Assembly (NCBI GenBank): GCA_964413735.1
Contig: CAYPSS010000003.1
Location: forward strand, 106,626 to 170,625
Source: an uncultured Gammaproteobacteria bacterium
GTDB lineage: Bacteria; Patescibacteriota; Patescibacteriia; UBA11705
Length of the DNA: 64,000 bases
Reading direction: 5' to 3'
In this document: positions 7,767-39,622 of the stretch, piece by piece
How positions within the stretch are numbered: the first letter of the stretch is position 1
Layout of the letters: each line of letters begins with the position of its first letter
The notes under the pieces: model-generated
What the model was told of the DNA's origin: nothing
Database searches by the model: none
Seen by the model: the letters and a program-made list of their open reading frames with translations, nothing else
Position numbers and translations under genes: made by a program

Positions 7767-8894
7767 ATGAAAACAAAAATTTTGCTTTTTTTCTTGTTTT
7801 TATGTGGTGGTATTTTCTGGGGGGCGGTGGTTGATGCCAAGTCCTCGATGGAAGATAATTACTTTGTGGCCAGTGAAAGAGTCATTGAAGAAAATTTTTT
7901 TAAAGCCGGTAATGCGATTGATATTGCCGGAACATTAAAAAAAGATGCTTATGTGATTGGTAATATTGTGACGGTTGATGGCGTTATTGAGGGTGATTTG
8001 ATTGGTGCGGGAAGTACTTTGAAAATCAATGGTGAGGTAAAGGGTAGTGTGCGTTTTATTGCGGAAAATATAATTATCAATGGTCAAGTGGGAAAAAATT
8101 TATTAGCGGCCGGGAATTTAATTAATTTGGAAAATAATGGTTCGGTTGGTTGGGAAGTTTTAAGCGCTGGTAATTTAATTGATATGAAAGGTAAGGTAGG
8201 GTCTGACTTAAAAGCAATTGGTACTATTTTAAATATTAATAATGAAATCAATGGCCGAGTTCACGCCCAAATGACGGAAATAAATTTGGGTGATCAAGCG
8301 CTGATTACAGGTGATTTTAATTATTATTCGGAAAAAGATTTAGTAAAAAAAGAACAAGCCCAAATTTTGGGTCAAATTAACAAGATTGAAAATTTTGGGT
8401 TTACCAAGTCTCAACCCGCCAAGGATTTCTCTTATTATTTGGGGAAGTTTATTTTTAGCTATTTGAGCTTTTTGCTTTTAGCGATTGTTTTGATCGTTTT
8501 GATGCGCAAAAAAATTGATTTGGTGACCATGGAAATCAAAAGTAATTTGGCAAAAAATTTAGGTTGGGGAATTTTGCTCTTGTTTGGCGTACCTTTATTG
8601 GCGGTGCTTATTTTATTAACAATTGTGGGATTGCCGATATCTTTGGTGGTGATGATGATTTATTTTGCAGTGGTTTTGGTTTCACGAATTTTTGTGTCAA
8701 TTGTGATATGGCGTTTTATTGCTCAATTGGTGAGAATCAAACAACCGCTTGATTTAATGCTTCAAGCCTTGATTGGTTTGTTTGTTTATTCTCTGTTGTG
8801 TGTAATACCGATTGTGGGGGCTTTGTTGAATTTGTTGGCAATTGCGGTTAGTTTAAGTGCGGTTTTCCTAGTTTTTCGTCAAAGTGAAAAGTAA
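7767..8894 (+). CDS. Signal-peptide protein with bactofilin-like beta-helix repeats and C-terminal polytopic membrane domain (hypothetical)
   Basis: Signal peptide. Repeated G-x-I/V-x-I/V-x-G segments (GNIVTVDGVIEGDLIGAGSTLKINGEVKGSV...). Three or four C-terminal TM helices. Confidence 0.5.
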   Translation: MKTKILLFFLFLCGGIFWGAVVDAKSSMEDNYFVASERVIEENFFKAGNAIDIAGTLKKDAYVIGNIVTVDGVIEGDLIGAGSTLKINGEVKGSVRFIAENIIINGQVGKNLLAAGNLINLENNGSVGWEVLSAGNLIDMKGKVGSDLKAIGTILNINNEINGRVHAQMTEINLGDQALITGDFNYYSEKDLVKKEQAQILGQINKIENFGFTKSQPAKDFSYYLGKFIFSYLSFLLLAIVLIVLMRKKIDLVTMEIKSNLAKNLGWGILLLFGVPLLAVLILLTIVGLPISLVVMMIYFAVVLVSRIFVSIVIWRFIAQLVRIKQPLDLMLQALIGLFVYSLLCVIPIVGALLNLLAIAVSLSAVFLVFRQSEK

Positions 8895-18985: not shown

Positions 18986-24790
<5,805 letters not shown>

Positions 24791-27291: not shown

Positions 27292-28239
27292 ATGAAAAAA
27301 ATTCTGATTGGTGTTTTTTCCATTCTATTATTTTTACCTTTATTTTGTGTCCAGGGACAGACTTTTAATTTTGATTTGGGTTTGCAAAAAGAAGATATTT
27401 CGTTTTCTTGGCAAACTGGTGATTTGGTCAGTGGTGAAAAAGTTGAGGCGTCAATTGTTATTCATAATTATGGTAATTTTGATGTAAGTACGAGACCGGT
27501 TGTTTTATTAAATGATCAGCTTTTAATTGAAATACCTAATATTTTGGTGAAAGCGGTTGATAAAAGTCGAGGTGTTTTTTTTGATTTTATTGCTCCGGAT
27601 AATGATTTTCGTTTAACGGTTCAATTAACTGCCATGAATCCGGGTGATCAAAATTTATTAAATAATAAAGTCAGTGTTGATTATTCCGTGAAATCGCCGC
27701 CTATTGTTGATACCCGGTTGTCAGTCACGGAAAAAAGTGAATCTGAGTTATTGCCGGTGAATAATTTGACTGTTTCTAATAAAGAACAATCTATAACAAT
27801 TACCCCGCCCGATTATTTATCACTAAATGGAGAATTTGTTGATTCTTTTGATGAAGTGGTTGAGGCCACTGATGCAGATGTTGTTTTACAAGCCGGAGAG
27901 GTTCCGTCGGGATTAAAAATCGTAGCGCGAACTTTGAAGTGGGGAGTGTTTGATTTTTCATATAAATCGAATGATTTAACAATTGATGAAAAAACAGCTC
28001 AAATTAAATGGGATTTTGGTGATGGTAATACAGCCACCGCCAATGGGGTTTATGAGTATCAAGCTCCGGGTGCCTATTATGTTAAGTTAAAGGTAGTTGG
28101 TCGTGACGCCAATACTCATACGGCGGTGGAAACGGTCATTGTGCCATTTTGGTCAATTTATAATATATATTTTTGGGGGTTGGTAATTTTTGTCGTTGTT
28201 GTCTTACTGGCTTTATTTTTAATCTTAAAGAAAAAATAA
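27292..28239 (+). CDS. Secreted PKD-domain protein with C-terminal TM anchor
   Basis: Signal peptide. WDFGDGNTATANGVYEYQAPGAYYVKLKV PKD-like motif. C-terminal hydrophobic helix. Confidence 0.55.
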   Translation: MKKILIGVFSILLFLPLFCVQGQTFNFDLGLQKEDISFSWQTGDLVSGEKVEASIVIHNYGNFDVSTRPVVLLNDQLLIEIPNILVKAVDKSRGVFFDFIAPDNDFRLTVQLTAMNPGDQNLLNNKVSVDYSVKSPPIVDTRLSVTEKSESELLPVNNLTVSNKEQSITITPPDYLSLNGEFVDSFDEVVEATDADVVLQAGEVPSGLKIVARTLKWGVFDFSYKSNDLTIDEKTAQIKWDFGDGNTATANGVYEYQAPGAYYVKLKVVGRDANTHTAVETVIVPFWSIYNIYFWGLVIFVVVVLLALFLILKKK

Positions 28240-31420: not shown

Positions 31421-33394
31421 ATGAAAATTGATTATCAGGCTGAATTAAATCAAGAACAGTATCAAGTGGTCACTCAGGCGGAGGGGCCATGTTTGGTCTT
31501 GGCCGGGGCCGGATCAGGGAAAACCCGAACTTTGGTGTATCGAGTGGCTTATTTATTGGAACGGGGAATAAAGCCGGAAAATATTTTACTGGTTACTTTT
31601 ACCAACAAAGCAGCTAAGGAAATGATCGGACGAGTTCGTAGTTTGCTTGGTTTTGAACCGCAGGGGTTAAATGCGGGTACTTTTCATCATATTGCCAATT
31701 TATTATTGCGTCATTATGCTGATCGATTGGGTTATAATCGTAACTTCACCATTATTGATCAAGATGACAGTATTGATATTATCAAAGCGGTCATGCAAAA
31801 TCTGAATTTAAATGTTAAGGGACAAAATTTCCCCAAACCCAATGTGGTTCAGTCGGTAATTTCTTTTGCGCGAAATTCCAATGAGCCGATAAGTGAAGTG
31901 GCCGGCTTAATTTACGGATATCCTGATTTTATCGCCGAATCCATGGAACGAATCGCTTTTGATTATCAAGAAAAAAAACTCAAGGCTAATGCCATGGATT
32001 TTGATGATTTGCTCGTTAATTGGTTGCGTTTGTTGCGAGAGCATTTGGATGTAGCTGATCATCTGTCAGATAAGTTTAAATATATTTTAGTTGATGAATA
32101 TCAGGATACCAACTACATTCAAGCGGCGGTAATCAATGCGTTGGCCAAGGTGCACCAAAATGTTTTGGTGGTTGGTGATGATGCTCAGAGTATTTATAGT
32201 TTTCGCGCTGCGGATATTAATAATATATTGAATTTCCCGAAAAATTTTCCCAATACCAAAACTTTTCATATAGAAACCAATTATCGTTCCACTCCGCAAA
32301 TTTTGGCTTTGGCCAATGACAGTATTAGTCATAATTTGGATAAATATGAAAAATCTTTGCGTCCTTATCGACGTGAAGGGGTAATGCCGATATTAATTCC
32401 GGCGCGTGATGTTTATCAACAAGCCGGCTTGATTGCCAATAAAATCATTGAATTAATGGACAAAAATGTTGCTTTGAAAAATATTGCGGTCTTGTTTCGG
32501 GCGGTTTATCATTCCGCGGAATTACAATTGGAGTTGGCGCGACGTAATATCCCGTTTATTGTGCGTGGGGGAATGCGCTACTTTGAACAAGCGCATATTA
32601 AGGACATTGTTTCATATTTGAAAATCGTGCAAAATATCAAGGATGAAATTGCCTGGAAAAGGGTTTTGCGATTGTATGATGGGATTGGTCCGGCTGGCGC
32701 CGAAAAAATTTGGCAACAAGTTTCTATTTGTGATAATTTTTCTGATTTATTTAATCAACCAATTAAATTATCCAGGGCGCGATTAATTAACAGCTGGAAC
32801 AAAATTTTGTTCACTTTTCAATTGTTGAATCAAATTGCTTGGGAGAAAAAAGGATCATTGGCTGAGGCGGTTTTGGTTGTTTTAGAACATGGTTATCGCG
32901 ATTATTTGAAAAATACATTTGATAATCACAAGGAGAGATTTGATGATGTTCAACAGTTTATTGATTTTGTGATGACTTATGAAAGTTTGGAAAAACTTTT
33001 ATCTGATGTGTTGTTGTCCGAACAGTTTGCTCACGATGCGGAAAAGGAAGTTAACTCCCTTGTTCTGTCTACTATTCATCAGGCTAAGGGGTTGGAATGG
33101 AATTATGTAATGCTCCTGAATTTGCGTGATGGGGATTTCCCCCATTACAAATCCTTAGAAAATAAAAAGGAAGTAGAGGAAGAACGCCGATTGTTCTATG
33201 TGGCGATTACCAGAGCTAAGGATGAACTTTATTTGTTTTATCCGATACGAAAAAACACTTTTCAATATGGCGAAATGACGGGCGGGCCCAGTTTGTTTAT
33301 AAAAGAGGTAAATGAAAAGTATTTGGCTATTAAAAGACAGCATAATTTCCTTGATTTTGGCAATGAAGAAGATCAAGTGATATACTATGATTAG
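31421..33394 (+). CDS. pcrA: UvrD/PcrA/Rep-family ATP-dependent DNA helicase
   Basis: Walker A AGAGSGKT, DEYQDTN (motif II), conserved C-terminal helicase motifs (VLSTIHQAKGLEW, YVAITRAK). Confidence 0.9.
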   Translation: MKIDYQAELNQEQYQVVTQAEGPCLVLAGAGSGKTRTLVYRVAYLLERGIKPENILLVTFTNKAAKEMIGRVRSLLGFEPQGLNAGTFHHIANLLLRHYADRLGYNRNFTIIDQDDSIDIIKAVMQNLNLNVKGQNFPKPNVVQSVISFARNSNEPISEVAGLIYGYPDFIAESMERIAFDYQEKKLKANAMDFDDLLVNWLRLLREHLDVADHLSDKFKYILVDEYQDTNYIQAAVINALAKVHQNVLVVGDDAQSIYSFRAADINNILNFPKNFPNTKTFHIETNYRSTPQILALANDSISHNLDKYEKSLRPYRREGVMPILIPARDVYQQAGLIANKIIELMDKNVALKNIAVLFRAVYHSAELQLELARRNIPFIVRGGMRYFEQAHIKDIVSYLKIVQNIKDEIAWKRVLRLYDGIGPAGAEKIWQQVSICDNFSDLFNQPIKLSRARLINSWNKILFTFQLLNQIAWEKKGSLAEAVLVVLEHGYRDYLKNTFDNHKERFDDVQQFIDFVMTYESLEKLLSDVLLSEQFAHDAEKEVNSLVLSTIHQAKGLEWNYVMLLNLRDGDFPHYKSLENKKEVEEERRLFYVAITRAKDELYLFYPIRKNTFQYGEMTGGPSLFIKEVNEKYLAIKRQHNFLDFGNEEDQVIYYD

Positions 33395-33412
33395 AAAAAT
33401 ATAAAGAATAAT

Positions 33413-34387
33413 ATGCCCGAACTATTTTCCCAAAAATTAAGAGCCAATTTCACCCCTGAACAGCAGGATTATTATTTGCTATTGGTAAATGAATTAAAAG
33501 AACTTTTGAATGGTCAAACGCAAGAGGAAGTACTTGCCAGTGGCGATCCGGAAATTATCCAACAAATTTTGAAGATCAAGCAAGAAATGCTTAATTTTGT
33601 GTTAACCAAGAAAACTAGGGAAATGACTAGGCAAGAGGAGAAAGCAAAATTAGAGCAAGAAAAACGATCAATTAGTTTAGATGAAATTGAAAGAAAACAA
33701 AAGGCGGGTGAAGAATTAACTGATAATGAATTGAAGTTTTTGTATCGGATTGATGGACTTGGTTTGTCTTTTTCATCTAGTAATGAAGATAAAAAACGAG
33801 TAGAAGATATTATAAATCAACGAAATATTAAGGAAGATGTTTCTTATGTTTTAGGTTGTTCAGAAGATCAAGTGAGTTTAACAACACAAGAGTTTTTAGC
33901 TGGGACAGACATTGTTTATCATTTTGGATTTCTTGATTTAGAAAGGATAACAAGCACTAAAGGATTACAATTACCGCAAAGTATTGGTGGAGGTCTTAAT
34001 TTAAGCCGTCTAACGAGCGCTGAAGGTTTACAATTACCGCAAAGTATTGGTGGAGGTCTTTATTTAGGCAGTTTAACGAGCGCTGAAGGATTACAATTAC
34101 CACAAAGTATTGATGGGGGTCTTTATTTAGGCAGTCTAACAAGCGCTGAAGGTTTACAATTACCGCAAAGTATTGGAGGAGATCTTGATTTAGAAAGGAT
34201 AACAAGCGCTAAAGGATTACAATTACCTCAAAGTATTGGAGGAAGTCTTTATTTAATGAATCTAAGGAGCGCTGAAGGATTAGAAATTCCCCTGGGTGTT
34301 AAATCGATTTATTTTGAAAAAATGTCAGATTATGAAATTGAAAAATTAAAGAAAAAATTTCCGCATATAAAGGTGAATAAAATATAA
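33413..34387 (+). CDS. Paralog 1 of a tandem family: conserved N-terminus, coiled coil, LRR-like 21-aa repeat core (5.5 tandem copies), conserved C-terminus
   Basis: MPELFSQKLRANFTPEQQDYYL...LTDNELKFLYRIDG, then repeats TSAEGLQLPQSIGGGLYLGSL, C-terminus KKFPHIKVNK. Confidence 0.6.
   Translation: MPELFSQKLRANFTPEQQDYYLLLVNELKELLNGQTQEEVLASGDPEIIQQILKIKQEMLNFVLTKKTREMTRQEEKAKLEQEKRSISLDEIERKQKAGEELTDNELKFLYRIDGLGLSFSSSNEDKKRVEDIINQRNIKEDVSYVLGCSEDQVSLTTQEFLAGTDIVYHFGFLDLERITSTKGLQLPQSIGGGLNLSRLTSAEGLQLPQSIGGGLYLGSLTSAEGLQLPQSIDGGLYLGSLTSAEGLQLPQSIGGDLDLERITSAKGLQLPQSIGGSLYLMNLRSAEGLEIPLGVKSIYFEKMSDYEIEKLKKKFPHIKVNKI
33928..34292 (+). repeat. In-frame 63-bp tandem repeat (about 5.5 copies) inside paralog 1
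   Basis: Near-identical units with single-nucleotide variants (e.g. aagcgctgaaggtttacaattaccgcaaagtattggaggagatcttgatttagaaaggataac). Confidence 0.8.
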
Positions 34388-34388
34388 T

Positions 34389-35336
34389 ATGCCCGAACTA
34401 TTTTCTCAAAAATTAAAAGCCAACTTCACCCCTGAACAGCAGGATTATTACTTGCAATTGGAAAATGAATTAAAAGAACTTTTAGGCGGTCAAACGCAGG
34501 AGGAAGTACTGGCTGGTGGTGATCCGGAAATTATCCAAAAAATTTTGGAGATAAAGCAGGAAATGCTTAATTTTGTGTTAACCAAGAAGACCAGGGAAAT
34601 GGTGAAACAAGAAGAAAAAGAACAAGAAGAAAGAATATTGAGACAAAGAGAAAAAGAATTAGAAAAAGAAAGACAAGCAGTAAGTTTAGATGAAATAGAA
34701 AGAAAGCAAAAGGCGGGAGTAAGATTGACTGATAATGAACTAAAGTTTTTATATCGGATTGATGGATTTGGATTATCTTCTATTTCTTCTGCTCATGAGC
34801 GTGCTTTGGCAACTCGAATAATTGAAAATAGAGATATAAAACAAGATATAATTCAAGTTTTAAATTGTAAAGATTATCAAGTTAGATCTTCGGTATTGAA
34901 TTATGCAAGAGATGAAGATATTGAATATTGTTTTGAAAGTTTGTATTTAGCGCATATAGGTTCCGGGCAAGGTTTGTATTTGCCAAAAAGAATCAAGGGA
35001 AATTTGGATTTAGGTGGGATTATAAATCCTCAAGGTTTAAAATTACCGGAAAGTGTTGGCGGTGTTCTTGACCTTAGGAAATTAAATACTGTTGAAAACT
35101 TAAAATTACCCAAGTATATTAACTATGATTTACTTTTGGATGGAATTATCACTACTAAAGGATTGAAATTACCCATTTTTATTGGAGGAAAATTGTATTT
35201 ACGACGATTAAGAAAGGTTGATGAATTGGAAATTCCATTAGGAGTAAAAACTGTCGTATTTTCGCTAGGTGTTTCTGACGCTCAAGTGGAAAAAATTTCT
35301 AAAAAGTTTCCTCATGTTACTTTTGAACGAGAGTAA
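34389..35336 (+). CDS. Paralog 2 of the tandem family (divergent repeat core)
   Basis: Same N-terminus (MPELFSQKLKANFTPEQQDYYLQLENELKELLGG...) and the same C-terminal KKFPH motif. Middle has degenerate about 21-aa LKLP-type repeats. Confidence 0.6.
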   Translation: MPELFSQKLKANFTPEQQDYYLQLENELKELLGGQTQEEVLAGGDPEIIQKILEIKQEMLNFVLTKKTREMVKQEEKEQEERILRQREKELEKERQAVSLDEIERKQKAGVRLTDNELKFLYRIDGFGLSSISSAHERALATRIIENRDIKQDIIQVLNCKDYQVRSSVLNYARDEDIEYCFESLYLAHIGSGQGLYLPKRIKGNLDLGGIINPQGLKLPESVGGVLDLRKLNTVENLKLPKYINYDLLLDGIITTKGLKLPIFIGGKLYLRRLRKVDELEIPLGVKTVVFSLGVSDAQVEKISKKFPHVTFERE

Positions 35337-35340
35337 TCTT

Positions 35341-36417
35341 ATGTTTGAAACACTTTCTCAAAAATTAAAAGCCAATTTCACTCCCGAACAGCAGGATTAT
35401 TACTTGCAATTGGAAAATGAATTAAAAGAACTTTTGGGCGGTCAAACGCAGGAGGAAGTACTTGCCAGTGGCGATCCGGAAATTATCCAACAAATTTTGA
35501 AGATCAAGCAAGAAATGCTTAATTTTGTGTTAACCAAGAAGACCAGGGAAATGGTGAAACAAGAAGAAAAAGAACAAGAAGAAAGAATATTGAGACAAAG
35601 AGAAAAAGAATTAGAAAAAGAAAGACAAGCAGTAAGTTTAGATGAAATAGAAAGAAAGCAAAAGGCGGGAGTAAGATTGACTGATAATGAACTAAAGTTT
35701 TTATATCGGATTGATGGATTTGGTTTGCCTTCTTTATCTAGTTATGAGAATAAAAAACGAGTAGAAAAGATTATAAATCAACGAAATGTTAAGGAAGATG
35801 TTTCTTATGTTTTAGGTTGTTTTGAAGATCAAGTAAGTTTAACGCAAGATCAGTTTTTAGACGGTGTAGATATCGAATATCATTATGGTAATTTAGATTT
35901 TCGAAATTTAAATATTTTATCTGATTGGCAATTACCCAAATATATTCATGGAACTCTTGATTTGGGTGGGTTAACTGAAGGATCAAATATAATTAATAGT
36001 CAATTACCTCAAGGCATAGGTTATACTTTGAATATGGAGAGATTGTGGTCAGCTGTTGATTTGGTTTTTCCTAAATATGTGGGCGATTTCAATATTATGA
36101 ACCTAACCAGAATTGAAAATGTTAAATTCCCTTATCGAGTTGCCGGTGATTTTCATGTTAGTTGTTTGTTAATGAAAAAAGGAGTTGAATTACCAAAGAT
36201 TATTTTAGGTAGCATTTATTTGTATGGTACAAGATTGCCGAGTGATTTTGAAATACCGAAAAATTTTGAGGGAAGATTGGTGTTTGATGCTTTGACCAGT
36301 TCAGAAGGTCTAGAAATACCATTCGGCGTTAAATCAGTTATTTTTTACATGATGCCAATTGATGAAATTGAAAAATTAAGAAAAAAATTCCCACATTCAA
36401 ATTTTGAAAAAAATTAA
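35341..36417 (+). CDS. Paralog 3 of the tandem family (mosaic of paralog 1- and 2-like segments)
   Basis: ATG at 35341. N-terminal about 400 nt nearly identical to paralog 2, with short blocks identical to paralog 1. C-terminal KKFPHSNFEKN. Confidence 0.6.
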   Translation: MFETLSQKLKANFTPEQQDYYLQLENELKELLGGQTQEEVLASGDPEIIQQILKIKQEMLNFVLTKKTREMVKQEEKEQEERILRQREKELEKERQAVSLDEIERKQKAGVRLTDNELKFLYRIDGFGLPSLSSYENKKRVEKIINQRNVKEDVSYVLGCFEDQVSLTQDQFLDGVDIEYHYGNLDFRNLNILSDWQLPKYIHGTLDLGGLTEGSNIINSQLPQGIGYTLNMERLWSAVDLVFPKYVGDFNIMNLTRIENVKFPYRVAGDFHVSCLLMKKGVELPKIILGSIYLYGTRLPSDFEIPKNFEGRLVFDALTSSEGLEIPFGVKSVIFYMMPIDEIEKLRKKFPHSNFEKN

Positions 36418-36434
36418 TTAGCTAATTATATTTT

Positions 36435-37175
36435 ATGAGTAGTGAATTTCCACCCGTATCAACTCCATTATCTGATGATGAAAATTATCAAGGAACGGGA
36501 ATGAGTAAAACGAAATTTTTTCGTGATGCTCATAAGCATGGTTGGGGACATCATCGACATGAGCATGTGGTTGATACCGGTGATTTGGAAACCCGTCGTC
36601 AAATAGAGCGAGATGTGAGAATAGAAAAAACCGGTGAAACAACGCCAAACATTAAATTAATCAAACAAATCAGGCAACAGGTACAATCAATTGAATTGGA
36701 TCCACAGGTTAAAGGCCAGGATCTTGAAATTCAGTCAGCCGAATTGGAAAAAAGGAAAAAAACCGCCTTGAAAATGATTGAAGAAGCTTTGAGCAATGCC
36801 AAAGATTATGTAGTGATTATTCAAGCTTTGTCTTCATACAAAAATGCTAACCGTGATACCGCTGATCGCGCGCAATGGCAAGCGGAAGTGGAGCGTCAAG
36901 ATTTGGCGCGTCGTTTGAAACATAACGCCTTGATTGACTCTTTGCGAATCGTGGCGCGTTATATTCGCAATAATTTCGGGATATTAAGTGAAAAACAATT
37001 GGAAAAGTTTATTGATGAGCAGGAAGAACGAGGTTTCGAAATTTTAGAAGTCAAACGAGTGGCTTTCCCGGAAAAAATGTTGTGTCCCGATTGGGTGAAT
37101 TATGACCAGCGAGAATCAATTACCGAATGGGCGATACAGTTAACCGAAGAACTGGGCGCTATGGATTCAAAATAA
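36435..37175 (+). CDS. Hypothetical protein with His-rich N-terminal patch
   Basis: 246-aa ORF (HKHGWGHHRHEH). Downstream neighbour of the paralog array. Followed by a terminator. Confidence 0.5.
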   Translation: MSSEFPPVSTPLSDDENYQGTGMSKTKFFRDAHKHGWGHHRHEHVVDTGDLETRRQIERDVRIEKTGETTPNIKLIKQIRQQVQSIELDPQVKGQDLEIQSAELEKRKKTALKMIEEALSNAKDYVVIIQALSSYKNANRDTADRAQWQAEVERQDLARRLKHNALIDSLRIVARYIRNNFGILSEKQLEKFIDEQEERGFEILEVKRVAFPEKMLCPDWVNYDQRESITEWAIQLTEELGAMDSK

Positions 37176-37183
37176 ACAAAATA

Positions 37184-37206
37184 AGAGAGCGTTGCTCTCT
37201 TTTTTA
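37184..37206. terminator. Bidirectional rho-independent terminator between convergent genes
   Basis: agagagc-gtt-gctctct perfect 7-bp stem, flanked by an A-run upstream and tttttt downstream. Confidence 0.65.
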
Positions 37207-37458
37207 TTATTGACCACGACGAGTCATATCAAGACAATGTGTCCAAACCATTTTTCGCAGTTCCGGCAGAGAAATTGGAATGGTGCAAAATTCACGAAGT
37301 TGCTCAATTTTTTCATTGATTCTTCGGTTACTCATAGCCAGATCTTTATCGCAACCAGTCATATTTCGGATACCGTTTGCCAAAAGTTCATCGAAAATGT
37401 CTGAAACCAACTTACGCGCATGCGGATGATCCTTGGTAATTTGTTCCAATCTTTGCAT
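37207..37458 (-). CDS. Small hypothetical soluble protein (83 aa)
   Basis: Strong SD ggaggg 7 nt upstream of ATG 37458. No family recognised. Confidence 0.5.
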   Translation of the reverse strand: MQRLEQITKDHPHARKLVSDIFDELLANGIRNMTGCDKDLAMSNRRINEKIEQLREFCTIPISLPELRKMVWTHCLDMTRRGQ

Positions 37459-37622
37459 TTTCCCTCCTTTTGGGAAAAGATTGGGAAACAGGTTATATTA
37501 GCTGGTTTTTTATTATTTGTCAATAGTTGATTGAAAAACTCAATTTGAGGTGGAAAATTATAATAAATTATTTTACCCGGTCAAAGAAAAATGATATAAT
37601 ATATTTGGTATAAATATAATTT

Positions 37623-37826
37623 ATGAATTTTTTTATTTTGGGACATACTTTACAAACAATCGGAGCTATTGCCATTGCTTTTACTGTCCTGCGCGTGCAT
37701 CAGCGCATGAAATTGGAAAGGAAAATTGATGCTAAAGTTTTTAAGGAAATAAAACTGGAACAATCAGTGGTGACTTTTAGCATTATTTTTATTTTTGTTG
37801 GATATTTACTGCTTATTATATCATGA
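37623..37826 (+). CDS. Small hypothetical two-TM membrane protein
   Basis: 67-aa ORF with two hydrophobic helices. Weak support. Confidence 0.3.
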   Translation: MNFFILGHTLQTIGAIAIAFTVLRVHQRMKLERKIDAKVFKEIKLEQSVVTFSIIFIFVGYLLLIIS

Positions 37827-37830
37827 GGGG

Positions 37831-38673
37831 ATGAATAACAACTACGAAAAATTAAAGGATTTGGCGCGCCAAATCAGACAAGAAATTATTGTTATGATTA
37901 ACAATGCTGGTTCGGGCCATCCGGCATCGGCTTTGGGTTTGACGGAAATTTTTTGTGCTTTGTATTTCCAAATTATGCGTCATCAGTCGAAAAATCCCGA
38001 TTGGCCACAGCGTGATCGGTTGGTTTTATCGGCCGGCCATATTTGCGCGGTTCAATATGTGACAATGGCTTATGCCGGTTATTTTCCTCTGACGGAATTA
38101 AAAACTTTTCGAAAAATTAGTTCTCGTTTGCAGGGTCATCCGCATAATTTATCTTTGCCGGGAATAGAAAATTCTTCCGGTCCTTTGGGGCAAGGAATTT
38201 CGCAAGCGGTTGGTATGGCATTAAGTGATAAATTGGAAAAAAACAATCGATTTGTTTATTGCCTTTGCAGTGATGGAGAAATGAATGAAGGACAATTTTG
38301 GGAAGCGTTAATGAGTGCTAATAAATATCAGTTAAATAATTTGATTATTATTATTGATCGTAACCATATCCAAATTGATGGTCGAACGGAAGATATTATG
38401 CCTCTTGAACCGGTGGACAAGAAACTACGTTCTTTTGTTGATTTGGTGATCGAAATAAATGGCCATGATTTTGCGGAAATTTTCAATGCCGTGAAAATTG
38501 CCCAAAAAAATTCTCACGGACCGACAGTGATTTTAGCTCGGACTGTGCCGGGAAAAGGCGTTTCTTTTATGGAGAATGATCCTGTGTGGCATGGAAAAGC
38601 ACCCAGTATTAAACAAGCAAAAAGAGCTTTGAAGCAATTAAAAACCAAACGAGTGGTTGGTTTACCTTTTTAG
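37831..38673 (+). CDS. Transketolase, N-terminal (TPP-binding) subunit
   Basis: SGHPASALGLTEIF motif, TPP-binding GDG...N segment. 280 aa. SD gagggg upstream of ATG 37831. Confidence 0.85.
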   Translation: MNNNYEKLKDLARQIRQEIIVMINNAGSGHPASALGLTEIFCALYFQIMRHQSKNPDWPQRDRLVLSAGHICAVQYVTMAYAGYFPLTELKTFRKISSRLQGHPHNLSLPGIENSSGPLGQGISQAVGMALSDKLEKNNRFVYCLCSDGEMNEGQFWEALMSANKYQLNNLIIIIDRNHIQIDGRTEDIMPLEPVDKKLRSFVDLVIEINGHDFAEIFNAVKIAQKNSHGPTVILARTVPGKGVSFMENDPVWHGKAPSIKQAKRALKQLKTKRVVGLPF

Positions 38674-38674
38674 T

Positions 38675-39622
38675 ATGATTAATTTTTCCAAAAATAAAAT
38701 GTTAGCTATGCGTGATGCTTTTGGTGAAGCATTGGTTGAGGCCGGGAGAAAAAATAACAATATTGTAGCGTTAACCGCTAATTTGGAGGAGTCAACACGT
38801 TTATCGGCTTTTCATCAAGAGTTTCCTGATCGGTTTTTTGATTTGGGTGTGGCGGAACAAAATTTGATTGGCGTTGCTGCCGGTTTGGCTTTGTCTGATA
38901 AAATTCCTTTTATTACCAGTTTTGGCGTATTTTCTCCGGGGAGAAATTGGGATCAGCTTCGAATTAGCGTGTGTTATAGTCGAGCGAATGTGAAAATCGT
39001 TGCCACTCATTGTGGTTTGTCGGTGGGACAAGATGGGGCTTCACATCAAGCGTTGGAAGATTTGGCCATTACTCGTTGTTTACCGAATTTGATTGTTTTG
39101 GCGCCGGCAGATTATTATGAAACCAAGCAGGTTATTCAGCAAGCGATTATTCATCAAGGACCGGTTTATATTCGTTTACCGCGCAGTGAAACGCCAATAA
39201 TTTTTGATTCCACCGTTGATTTTAAAATCGGTCAAGCGCAAATTTTGCAATCAGGAACAGATTTGACTATTTTTGCTTACGGACCAATGCTGGCTATCGC
39301 CTTACAAACAGCGCAAATATTAAAATCGTTTGGTTTAATGACTGAAGTGATTAATATTTCCAGTATTAAACCTTTGCCGGAAAAAATAGTTATTAATTCG
39401 GCAAAAAAAACAAAATTTGTTGTATCAATCGAAGACCATCAAATTTTCGGAGGATTGGGAAGTGCGGTGGCGGAGTTATTATCAGAAAAGCAACCGACAA
39501 AAATGATGATTTTCGGTGTGCCGGATAAATTCGGTGAATCCGGTCAACTGGCGGAATTGTATGAAAAATTCGGATTAACTCCAACCTTGATCGCCGGGAA
39601 ACTCAAAAAAGTTTTACTGTAA
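38675..39622 (+). CDS. Transketolase, C-terminal (pyrimidine-binding) subunit
   Basis: Typical C-terminal subunit layout (FDLGVAEQN...). ATG 2 nt after the N-subunit stop. Confidence 0.85.
   Translation: MINFSKNKMLAMRDAFGEALVEAGRKNNNIVALTANLEESTRLSAFHQEFPDRFFDLGVAEQNLIGVAAGLALSDKIPFITSFGVFSPGRNWDQLRISVCYSRANVKIVATHCGLSVGQDGASHQALEDLAITRCLPNLIVLAPADYYETKQVIQQAIIHQGPVYIRLPRSETPIIFDSTVDFKIGQAQILQSGTDLTIFAYGPMLAIALQTAQILKSFGLMTEVINISSIKPLPEKIVINSAKKTKFVVSIEDHQIFGGLGSAVAELLSEKQPTKMMIFGVPDKFGESGQLAELYEKFGLTPTLIAGKLKKVLL

Follow-up and report, generated by a model that had tools for sequence, protein, structure and literature searches.

Three tandem mosaic genes of a Patescibacteria genome with predicted leucine-rich-repeat-like cores and their link to a widespread uncharacterised protein family

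What kind of protein is encoded by three neighboring genes that share their ends and differ in their repeat-bearing cores, and how did these cores come to differ? The question is raised by p1, p2, and p3, three complete open reading frames (ORFs) that the ORF list places next to one another on the same strand of a 64,000-nucleotide stretch of DNA (contig CAYPSS010000003.1 of assembly GCA_964413735.1, positions 106,626 to 170,625; hereafter the window) from an uncultured bacterium of the Patescibacteriota. A first-pass annotation had described them as tandem paralogs with conserved termini and divergent cores of 21-aa repeats, and the ORFs and their alignments bear this description out. Our best reading, held with moderate confidence, is that p1–p3 are lineage-specific, soluble cytoplasmic binding proteins of the leucine-rich repeat (LRR) type, encoded in tandem and diversified by recombination. 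The LRR fold and the exchange of sequence between tandem paralogs are features of known kinds; what is new here is a repeat class outside the curated models, an N-terminal module with its alternative scaffolds, and the link to a large uncharacterised family.

The three proteins follow one plan, in which a helical N-terminal module (N-module) is followed by a coil, a helical mid domain, a core of 21-aa repeats, and a C-terminal tail (Table 1). At the protein level, p2 is 59% and p3 is 63% identical to p1. Near-invariant in the alignment of the three copies are the N terminus, the tail (EIPxGVK...KKFPH), and the motif LTDNELKFLYRIDG, and identity among p1–p3 and their family drops to 30–50% in the repeats, in the latter half of the mid domain, and in parts of the tail. 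The coil of p1 is a shorter version of a different type, seen as an 11-codon gap in the alignment. The genes are separated by 1 nt (p1 to p2) and 4 nt (p2 to p3). Alignment with the paralogs places the true start of p3 at the ATG at 35341 and not at the GTG at 35269 proposed by the ORF lister, which falls inside p2. Exact database proteins were found for all three genes (P0005 for p1, P0001 for p2, and P0004 for p3).

Mosaicism was assessed over the first 540 alignment columns, in which 145 sites separate p3 = p1 from p3 = p2. These informative sites form just 15 runs, a count that was never as low in 100,000 permutations. Uninterrupted runs of 62 and 46 sites define two tracts with different donors, so the mosaicism that the first-pass annotation had read as a gene-conversion footprint was confirmed and its tracts could be mapped by the pairwise nucleotide alignment that had been proposed as a check. 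The near-identity of p2 and p3 over ~400 nt noted there holds for a wider block of ~390 nt at ~95% identity; the exact identity is confined to 212 nt, and a p1-like patch breaks the block. Between p1 and p2, the longest exact identity is only 29 nt. Segments have been exchanged between the paralogs, and the mosaicism is real. Comparison with related proteins points the same way: p1 and P0003 have mid domains that are 100% identical, coils that are 25% identical, and arrays of 5 versus 8 units, the coil type of p1 recurs in P0009 (82% identical), and P0002 joins a p1-type array to a p2-type coil. Modules thus appear to be reshuffled between genomes too.

Since such patchworks may also be made by software, we considered whether the mosaic and the array are artefacts of metagenome assembly, produced by chimeric threading through similar paralogs or strains. 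With 212 and 89 nt, the exact blocks equal or exceed the usual length of k-mers and reads, and records of the exact proteins come from one contig alone. However, the copies follow one another on one contiguous stretch, the repeat core and tail of each being unique, and the 63-bp units of p1 differ at ≥5 positions each, so that 150-nt reads can place them. An artefact is highly improbable because the same reshuffling of modules is seen in proteins of two other contigs (32,270 and 115,554 nt), presumably independent assemblies. A simple assembly duplication as the source of the three copies, the refutation that had been foreseen at first, is ruled out, as the copies differ at 37–41% of residues.

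The repeat core evolves fast. Its consensus is L-x-L-P-x-x-I-G-G-x-L-x-L-x-x-L-x-S-A-E-G, and the 21-aa register is kept exactly by the 5 units of p1 and the 4 units of p2 and only in part by p3, where ~6 less regular units were recognized. Tandem Repeats Finder reports the p1 array at 33948–34282 with a period of 63, 5.3 copies, 85% matches, and no indels. The p1 units have 50–58 of 63 bases alike (79–92%), and no exact in-register stretch exceeds 35 nt. The 63-bp tandem repeat is therefore in frame and of the period first described, although neither "near-perfect" nor of ~5.5 copies, and its units seem too diverged for the classic slippage tract that would make it a hot spot of copy-number change. 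Among the five p1 units, 17 scaffold codons are identical or change mostly synonymously, and codons 10, 12, 14, and 15, the x positions of GG-x-L-x-L-x-x-L, vary from almost every unit to the next, each time with a non-synonymous change. The same four positions, together with positions 2 and 6, show the highest entropy among 322 repeat units of the broad family described below, and the variable positions alternate with invariant Leu/Ile residues. We infer that they are the solvent-facing residues of the strands, and variation at alternating, presumably exposed positions fits a recognition module. Between paralogs, the ratio of non-synonymous to synonymous divergence (dN/dS) is 0.36–0.78 in the repeats and 0.48–0.95 in the second half of the mid domain, with synonymous divergence (dS) ≥0.9 or saturated in the repeats and tail. 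Repeat number also changes, as the orthologues carry 5, 5, and 8 units. The repeat (SAEGLKLPESVGGxLDLxGLT) was also observed on an unrelated ~90-aa N-terminal domain (MCRF...) in P0011, P0012, P0015, and P0017, small metagenome proteins of 134–221 aa, and the repeat module is promiscuous.

Tandem genes with variable repeats bring to mind a programmed phase- or antigenic-variation locus, in which one surface protein is varied by conversion from neighboring cassettes and by slippage of the 63-bp repeat. The conversion tracts, the in-frame repeat of p1, and the differing repeat numbers of the orthologues would suit such a locus, as would the signal-peptide-like N termini of the Bdellovibrionota homologs described below, which indicate that the wider family can be extracytoplasmic. 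Neisseria pilE/pilS, Borrelia vlsE, and Treponema tprK combine one expression site with silent partial cassettes and encode surface proteins. The genes studied here share with these systems the gene-conversion footprints between adjacent sequences. However, p1–p3 are all complete ORFs with their own starts, 1–4 nt apart, and they have no export signal: neither a hydrophobic N terminus nor a transmembrane segment was detected, and the maximum Kyte–Doolittle mean over 19 residues is 1.28. The initial statement that a signal peptide is absent was correct, and a membrane or secreted protein was rejected on the same grounds; export by a non-classical route is still conceivable. Searches by tblastn with family members and repeat-only proteins found no promoterless fragments or further cassettes elsewhere in the 64-kb window, and the silent cassettes and additional members for which a search had been advised were thus not found there. 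No inverted repeats ≥25 nt are present in 33000–37500, which excludes an invertible-element switch, and no template-like extra repeat of a diversity-generating retroelement was seen in the same interval, the window having had no scan for a reverse transcriptase. Units of 63 bp that are 79–92% identical, with ≤35 nt of exact identity, seem unlike contingency-locus repeats, and the array is in frame at any copy number. The locus has neither a single expression site with partial donors nor a recognizable surface product. Programmed variation is therefore unlikely, because the window contains no silent cassettes, no switch element, and no export signal, and because the repeats seem too diverged for slippage; of the variation or recognition architecture proposed at first, the recognition part fits the pattern of variable positions.

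The predicted structure agrees with a recognition scaffold of the LRR type. For p2, AlphaFold2 was run on an alignment of 10 sequences (mean predicted local distance difference test score, pLDDT, 81), and the model shows N-terminal helices including a long helix at residues 46–97, of which the p2 coil is part, and a small helical domain at residues 100–173. These are followed by a solenoid with short strands at residues 180–295 (pLDDT 88–95) and by a helix–strand cap, in which the tail contributes helix 297–306 plus a strand; a matching tail, ELRKKYPxL, is found in the broad family. The core is LRR-like by predicted fold because the p2 model shows this short-strand solenoid, and the features of the LRR superfamily, repeats of 20–30 residues in a curved solenoid with a parallel β-sheet, are all seen in the model. 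The closest short bacterial LRR domains are the "LPX" repeats of IpaH/SspH/YopM (20–22 residues), the Leptospira LRR proteins, and SDS22. Searches of Pfam, NCBIfam, PHROGs, and PADLOC gave no meaningful match for p1–p3, and the Pfam LRR models (LRR_1, LRR_4, LRR_8, and others) gave none at E ≤1; LRR_1 is touched only by the distant repeat-bearing proteins P0012 (E 9e-4) and P0017 (E 1.6e-6). The canonical Asn/Cys of LxxLxLxxN/CxL is replaced in the repeat LxLPxxIGGxLxLxxLxSAEG. Two other repeat types were rejected: pentapeptide repeats, which gave no Pfam hit, do not have a period of 21 aa, and appear only as a structure at Foldseek E 5.4, and BspA-type LRRs (Pfam LRR_5), which gave no Pfam hit for p1–p3. 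Among the PADLOC defense models, only p2 gave a match (E 0.022), with nothing for p1, p3, the neighboring downstream gene, or the broad-family protein P0020; no defense or immunity model supports the immunity role that had been suggested. For the N-module, the downstream neighbor, and the broad family, a sequence search of the PDB returned no relative, the matches being weak LRR or chance ones.

Close relatives of p1–p3 are few. A search of 5.8 billion proteins with p2 gave only 12 matches, consisting of the three window proteins, a fourth LRR-like paralog on the same 174,676-nt contig outside the window (P0007, 338 aa), five proteins on two other contigs, P0010 from Parcubacteria, and two repeat-sharing proteins with unrelated N termini. 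The architecture of p1–p3 is thereby seen in nine intact ORFs on three contigs (174,676, 32,270, and 115,554 nt), and P0010 shares with the window proteins only the mid domain, repeats, and tail. No further relatives were found in the genome and metagenome contigs scanned with the family alignment. The N-terminal ~72–77 residues are 85–97% identical among all nine members, and between the paralogs the N-module has a dS of 0.29–0.44 and a dN/dS of 0.14–0.25. Its dS lies below that of the repeats and tail; the 5′ ends are therefore under constraint and have also been kept alike, which agrees with gene conversion.

When 1.84 billion representative proteins were scored with a profile of residues 1–77, only three proteins beyond the family matched, one of which is of low complexity and was discounted. 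P0138 (674 aa, E 4e-7) is encoded on what is taken as the same contig, its length (174,676 nt) being that of the window's contig, and carries a different β-rich repeat region after the N-module, and P0140 (387 aa, E 8.6e-4) is a WD40 propeller protein. The N-modules of the LRR-like proteins, P0138, and P0140 align without large gaps over ~70 residues, and because three kinds of protein align there, the module is paired with at least three kinds of repeat scaffold. By these searches the N-module is nearly lineage-specific. The C-terminal part of P0138 consists of ~40-aa β-rich repeats without a Pfam hit, which to our reading resemble the WG/KWG type.

The conserved N-module also bears on whether the genes are functional at all. 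As N-terminally truncated, decaying duplicates of a larger gene of the ~610-aa broad family, carried along in an operon, p1–p3 would be expected to lack its conserved N-terminal 350 aa, which they do; truncated or interrupted copies occur elsewhere (the short ORF of L023 and the in-frame TAG of L001/L002, described below), and dN/dS in the second half of the mid domain is high. Such relics are nevertheless very unlikely because nine intact ORFs persist on three contigs of different lengths and the N-module is strongly constrained. The tail is likewise conserved, the scaffold residues of the repeats are maintained, and a new N-terminal domain has been gained, which goes beyond mere truncation.

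The origin of the remaining parts of p1–p3 was found through P0010, which in its genome is preceded by an ORF in frame across a single TAG. A search with residues 1–440 of the joined sequence, a query that ends before the repeats, returned >3,371 proteins of ~610 aa that are 56–71% identical, annotated as "hypothetical," and without Pfam domains. This broad family is 45–70% identical across classes of the Candidate Phyla Radiation (CPR) and Bdellovibrionota and is absent from Pfam, NCBIfam, PHROGs, and PADLOC. Its members contain a ~350-aa N-terminal domain with the invariant motifs TGWC, GDxYxYYS, and PRxxIRM, a mid domain with the common motif LTxxELKFLYxIDGFG..., 0–14 repeats of 21 aa (counted in 120 listed proteins), and a KKYP tail. 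In tblastn, P0020 and P0115 align to the window only from residues 352–353 on, corresponding to p1 residue ~89; residues 353–562 of P0020 match p1 at 33677–34300 (E 1e-46), and the E values for p3 and p2 are 2e-33 and 5e-26. All three window proteins contain the C-terminal features of the family (mid domain, SAEGLxLPxxVGGxLxL repeats, and KKYP-type tail), and none contains the ~350-aa N-terminal domain with TGWC and GDxYxYYS. The early remark that the family was not recognizable thus remains true for the curated libraries and not for residues ~89 to the end, which match the ~610-aa family.

The broad family was found in 321 species-representative genomes, mostly Patescibacteria of many classes, and also in Bdellovibrionota, including the isolate Bdellovibrio sp. 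HCB185ZH, whose copy lies near 249,200–251,040 of NZ_CP178624.1, in low-GC gut metagenome-assembled genomes (MAGs; "Bacilli," Erysipelotrichaceae, and Mycoplasma), and in one Nanoarchaeota MAG. Several of the MAG labels, such as "Gammaproteobacteria," may be mis-assigned. All eight Bdellovibrionota copies with a complete 5′ end (L033, L034, L039–L042, L049, and L074) carry a 41–57-aa N-terminal extension, in which a hydrophobic, signal-peptide-like segment is followed by a conserved Cys, and no CPR copy has such an extension, all of them starting directly at the conserved domain. Because only the Bdellovibrionota copies have it, the family may be exported in these predators and not, by the classical route, in CPR bacteria. 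The N-terminal domain was modeled with a pLDDT of 85.7 and had no significant Foldseek neighbor in the PDB. In the literature searched, no published description of the broad family, the repeat class, or the N-module was found; apart from BspA-type genes of Peredibacter (PMC13147790), which are unrelated by Pfam, it mentions no tandem LRR genes for Bdellovibrionota.

Variants within the broad family were also observed. P0115 and about half of the 120 listed members have no 21-aa repeats and carry a different ~190-aa C-terminal domain after the mid domain, and because many members do so, the family combines a constant N-terminal part with alternative C-terminal modules. In L001 (7134–8954), and also in L002, the gene is split by an in-frame TAG at 7965–7967 into ORFs of 277 and 317 aa; these loci belong to the Parcubacteria bacteria Gr01-1014_18 and Greene0416_36, and the 317-aa ORF is annotated as TSC56745.1 and recorded from three assemblies. 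The split may reflect a pseudogene, a sequencing variant, or read-through of the stop codon. A 424-aa ORF in L023 (5125–6399) joins the first ~20 broad-family residues directly to the last part of the mid domain, with 16 repeats behind it, as if by internal deletion. It is located immediately upstream of a full-length family gene and represents an independent derivative without the N-terminal domain.

An arrangement of this kind suggests that p1–p3 could compete with, or regulate, a full-length ~610-aa protein encoded elsewhere, offering the same LRR-type surface without the N-terminal domain. Their C-terminal half is indeed homologous to the broad family, and at least one other genome, that of L023, has such short derivatives beside full-length genes. 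We regard this role as doubtful: tblastn detected no full-length member in the 64-kb window, and the possession of a dedicated, conserved N-module, which is also found on non-LRR proteins, argues for an independent role.

We return to p1–p3 as recombining LRR-type binding proteins, for which the following course of events can be proposed. The mid domain, solenoid, and cap would have been inherited from the C-terminal half of a ~610-aa protein, with the N-module replacing its large N-terminal domain. By analogy with LRR and WD40 proteins, the repeat scaffolds would bind ligands, and the N-module would serve as a common docking or oligomerization handle through which exchangeable ligand-binding domains are connected to a single common partner or process, the three paralogs supplying different binding specificities. 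Diversity would arise by homologous recombination or gene conversion between adjacent copies, p3 being a patchwork of p2-like and p1-like segments, by unequal exchange inside the repeat array, giving 5 or 8 units in orthologues, and by amino-acid replacement that is concentrated at the x residues of GG-x-L-x-L-x-x-L, with the scaffold codons remaining homogenized.

Known systems resemble this scheme in part. The ~610-aa family itself (for example, TSC56745.1 and the L074 gene of Bdellovibrio sp. HCB185ZH) has a homologous mid domain, repeats, and tail, with the same variable positions; in contrast to it, p1–p3 carry the unrelated 77-aa N-module in place of the ~350-aa domain, and they form three tandem copies with a fourth on the contig, whereas the broad family is single-copy in 80 of the 81 loci examined. 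Plant NLR (nucleotide-binding LRR; R-gene) clusters and lamprey VLR (variable lymphocyte receptor) genes likewise contain LRR paralogs that exchange tracts and change in repeat number, with variation concentrated at the strand-motif x positions. The window proteins, however, are bacterial, of ~320 aa, without an NB-ARC or signaling domain, and undergo no somatic cassette assembly, which makes the comparison an analogy only. F-box proteins similarly place alternative scaffolds (LRR, WD40, or Kelch) behind a small N-terminal helical module, but no sequence or profile similarity exists, and the likeness is one of architecture.

Several points weigh against the binding-protein reading. The proteins escape the Pfam LRR models and do not have the canonical Asn/Cys of LxxLxLxxN. 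The dN/dS of the repeats is below 1 (0.36–0.78), so that gene-wide positive selection is not demonstrated. The assembly is of the metagenome type, in which the 212-nt identical block could let a short-read assembler mis-thread the paralogs. Only two non-family proteins carry the N-module, and the match of one of them, P0140, is borderline (E 8.6e-4). Finally, the binding and handle roles are drawn from analogy with other repeat proteins.

Table 1. Positions of p1–p3, their parts, the shared tracts, and adjoining sites in the window
Feature	Position	Strand	Description and basis
p1	33413–34387	+	324 aa; N-module, short coil, mid domain, 5 homogenized 21-aa repeats, tail; ORF, alignments
p2	34389–35336	+	315 aa; N-module, long E/K coil, mid domain, 4 diverged repeats, tail
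p3	35341–36417	+	358 aa; mosaic copy; alignment to paralogs and sequence
N-module	p1 33413–33643; p2 34389–34619; p3 35341–35571	+	77 aa, helical; conservation, profile search
E/K-rich coil	p2 34620–34685; p3 35572–35637	+	p2 and p3 100% identical; p1 29%
Mid domain	p1 33677–33964 (aa 89–184); p2 34686–34973; p3 35638–35925	+	Helical; tblastn, model
63-bp in-frame tandem array, p1	33931–34290	+	5 full units from 33965 and a degenerate leading unit
Repeat core, p2	34974–35225	+	4 units of 21 aa, diverged
Repeat core, p3	35926–36309	+	~6 units, irregular; one 24-aa unit, degenerate units
C-terminal cap/tail (LEIPLGVK...KKFPH)	p1 34280–34387; p2 35226–35336; p3 36310–36417	+	Alignments, model
Tract 1, p3 = p2	p2 34589–34767; p3 35541–35719	+	62 consecutive informative sites; includes 33-nt indel
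Tract 2, p3 = p1	p1 33775–33881; p3 35736–35842	+	46 consecutive informative sites; different donor
Exact 212-nt identity, p2/p3	p2 34560–34771; p3 35512–35723	+	Longest exact match
Exact 89-nt identity, p1/p3	p1 33524–33612; p3 35452–35540	+	Exact match
Promoter-like site	33357–33386	+	TTGGCA-18-TATACT with TG; sigma-70-like, consensus match only; within 3′ end of UvrD-like gene
Downstream gene	36435–37175	+	246 aa; 17 nt past p3; DUF3232 (PF11554), E 2.3e-7
Terminator-like hairpin	37183–37201		8 bp; T-run on both strands; after DUF3232-like gene

The array lies between a UvrD-like helicase gene (31421–33394) and the gene with a weak DUF3232 match, whose product also weakly matches the uncharacterised PDB entry 2rdc (E 0.024). 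We infer that p1–p3 are co-transcribed, possibly in the same transcription unit as this downstream gene. The hairpin that follows is the first terminator-like site downstream of the array and the only strong hairpin of the region. The promoter and terminator evidence is weak because the counts of such sites do not exceed the expectation from shuffled sequence. Antisense ORFs within the array (for example, 33996–34205) are by-products of the repeats.

The surroundings consist of housekeeping genes (LigA, GatA, QueH, a split transketolase, and ClpB) in a window of 36.8% GC, in which no tRNA genes or Rfam elements were found. The gene order from LigA to GatA-PKD is partly shared with a Parcubacteria MAG at ~45% identity. 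This gene order, the split transketolase, and the Patescibacteria origin of the family's nearest relatives make it probable that the low-GC host belongs to the Patescibacteria (CPR). Between LigA and the GatA region lies a 1,074-aa ORF (21566–24790, + strand) without a Pfam or PADLOC match; in the partly syntenic Parcubacteria locus L001, its place is occupied by a broad-family gene, and tblastn detected no similarity of the ORF to the broad family. Directly upstream of LigA is a gene for a small Peptidase_C39-like protein (18986–19546, + strand, E 5e-5), and a PKD-domain protein is encoded straight after GatA (27292–28239, + strand), with a GatA-adjacent PKD gene kept in L001. The transketolase (37795–39622, + strand) is encoded by two overlapping genes, one for the N-terminal part and the other for the pyrimidine-binding and C-terminal parts, and a split transketolase is usual in CPR bacteria and archaea.

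To our knowledge, the ways in which CPR/Patescibacteria recognize and exploit their hosts are largely unknown, and most conserved CPR proteins have no assigned function. The candidate carriers of the broad family include CPR episymbionts, predatory Bdellovibrionota, a Nanoarchaeota MAG, and Mycoplasma-like gut Bacilli. A speculative extension, to which we give only a small chance, is that the ~610-aa family and its short derivatives form a host- or prey-interaction toolkit of bacteria that live on other cells, with the hypervariable array setting target specificity. The array of p1–p3 would then have been uncoupled from the N-terminal domain and attached to a small adaptor module, on which WD40 and other repeat domains are also mounted, as a bacterial counterpart of the F-box-style principle of one handle and many receptors. 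If p1–p3 and their relatives are ordinary cytoplasmic scaffolds, the value of the finding would be limited to the annotation of a large "hypothetical" family. In either case, the locus points to a very widespread and highly conserved family outside Pfam, NCBIfam, PHROGs, and PADLOC, whose LRR-type array varies in length and in exposed residues and for which export is predicted in predatory bacteria. Constructs for binding-partner screens would be at hand in the N-module, in the mid domain together with the array, and in the three natural specificity variants, and the window may be seen as a compact natural experiment in how a binding-domain repertoire is diversified in a minimal genome.

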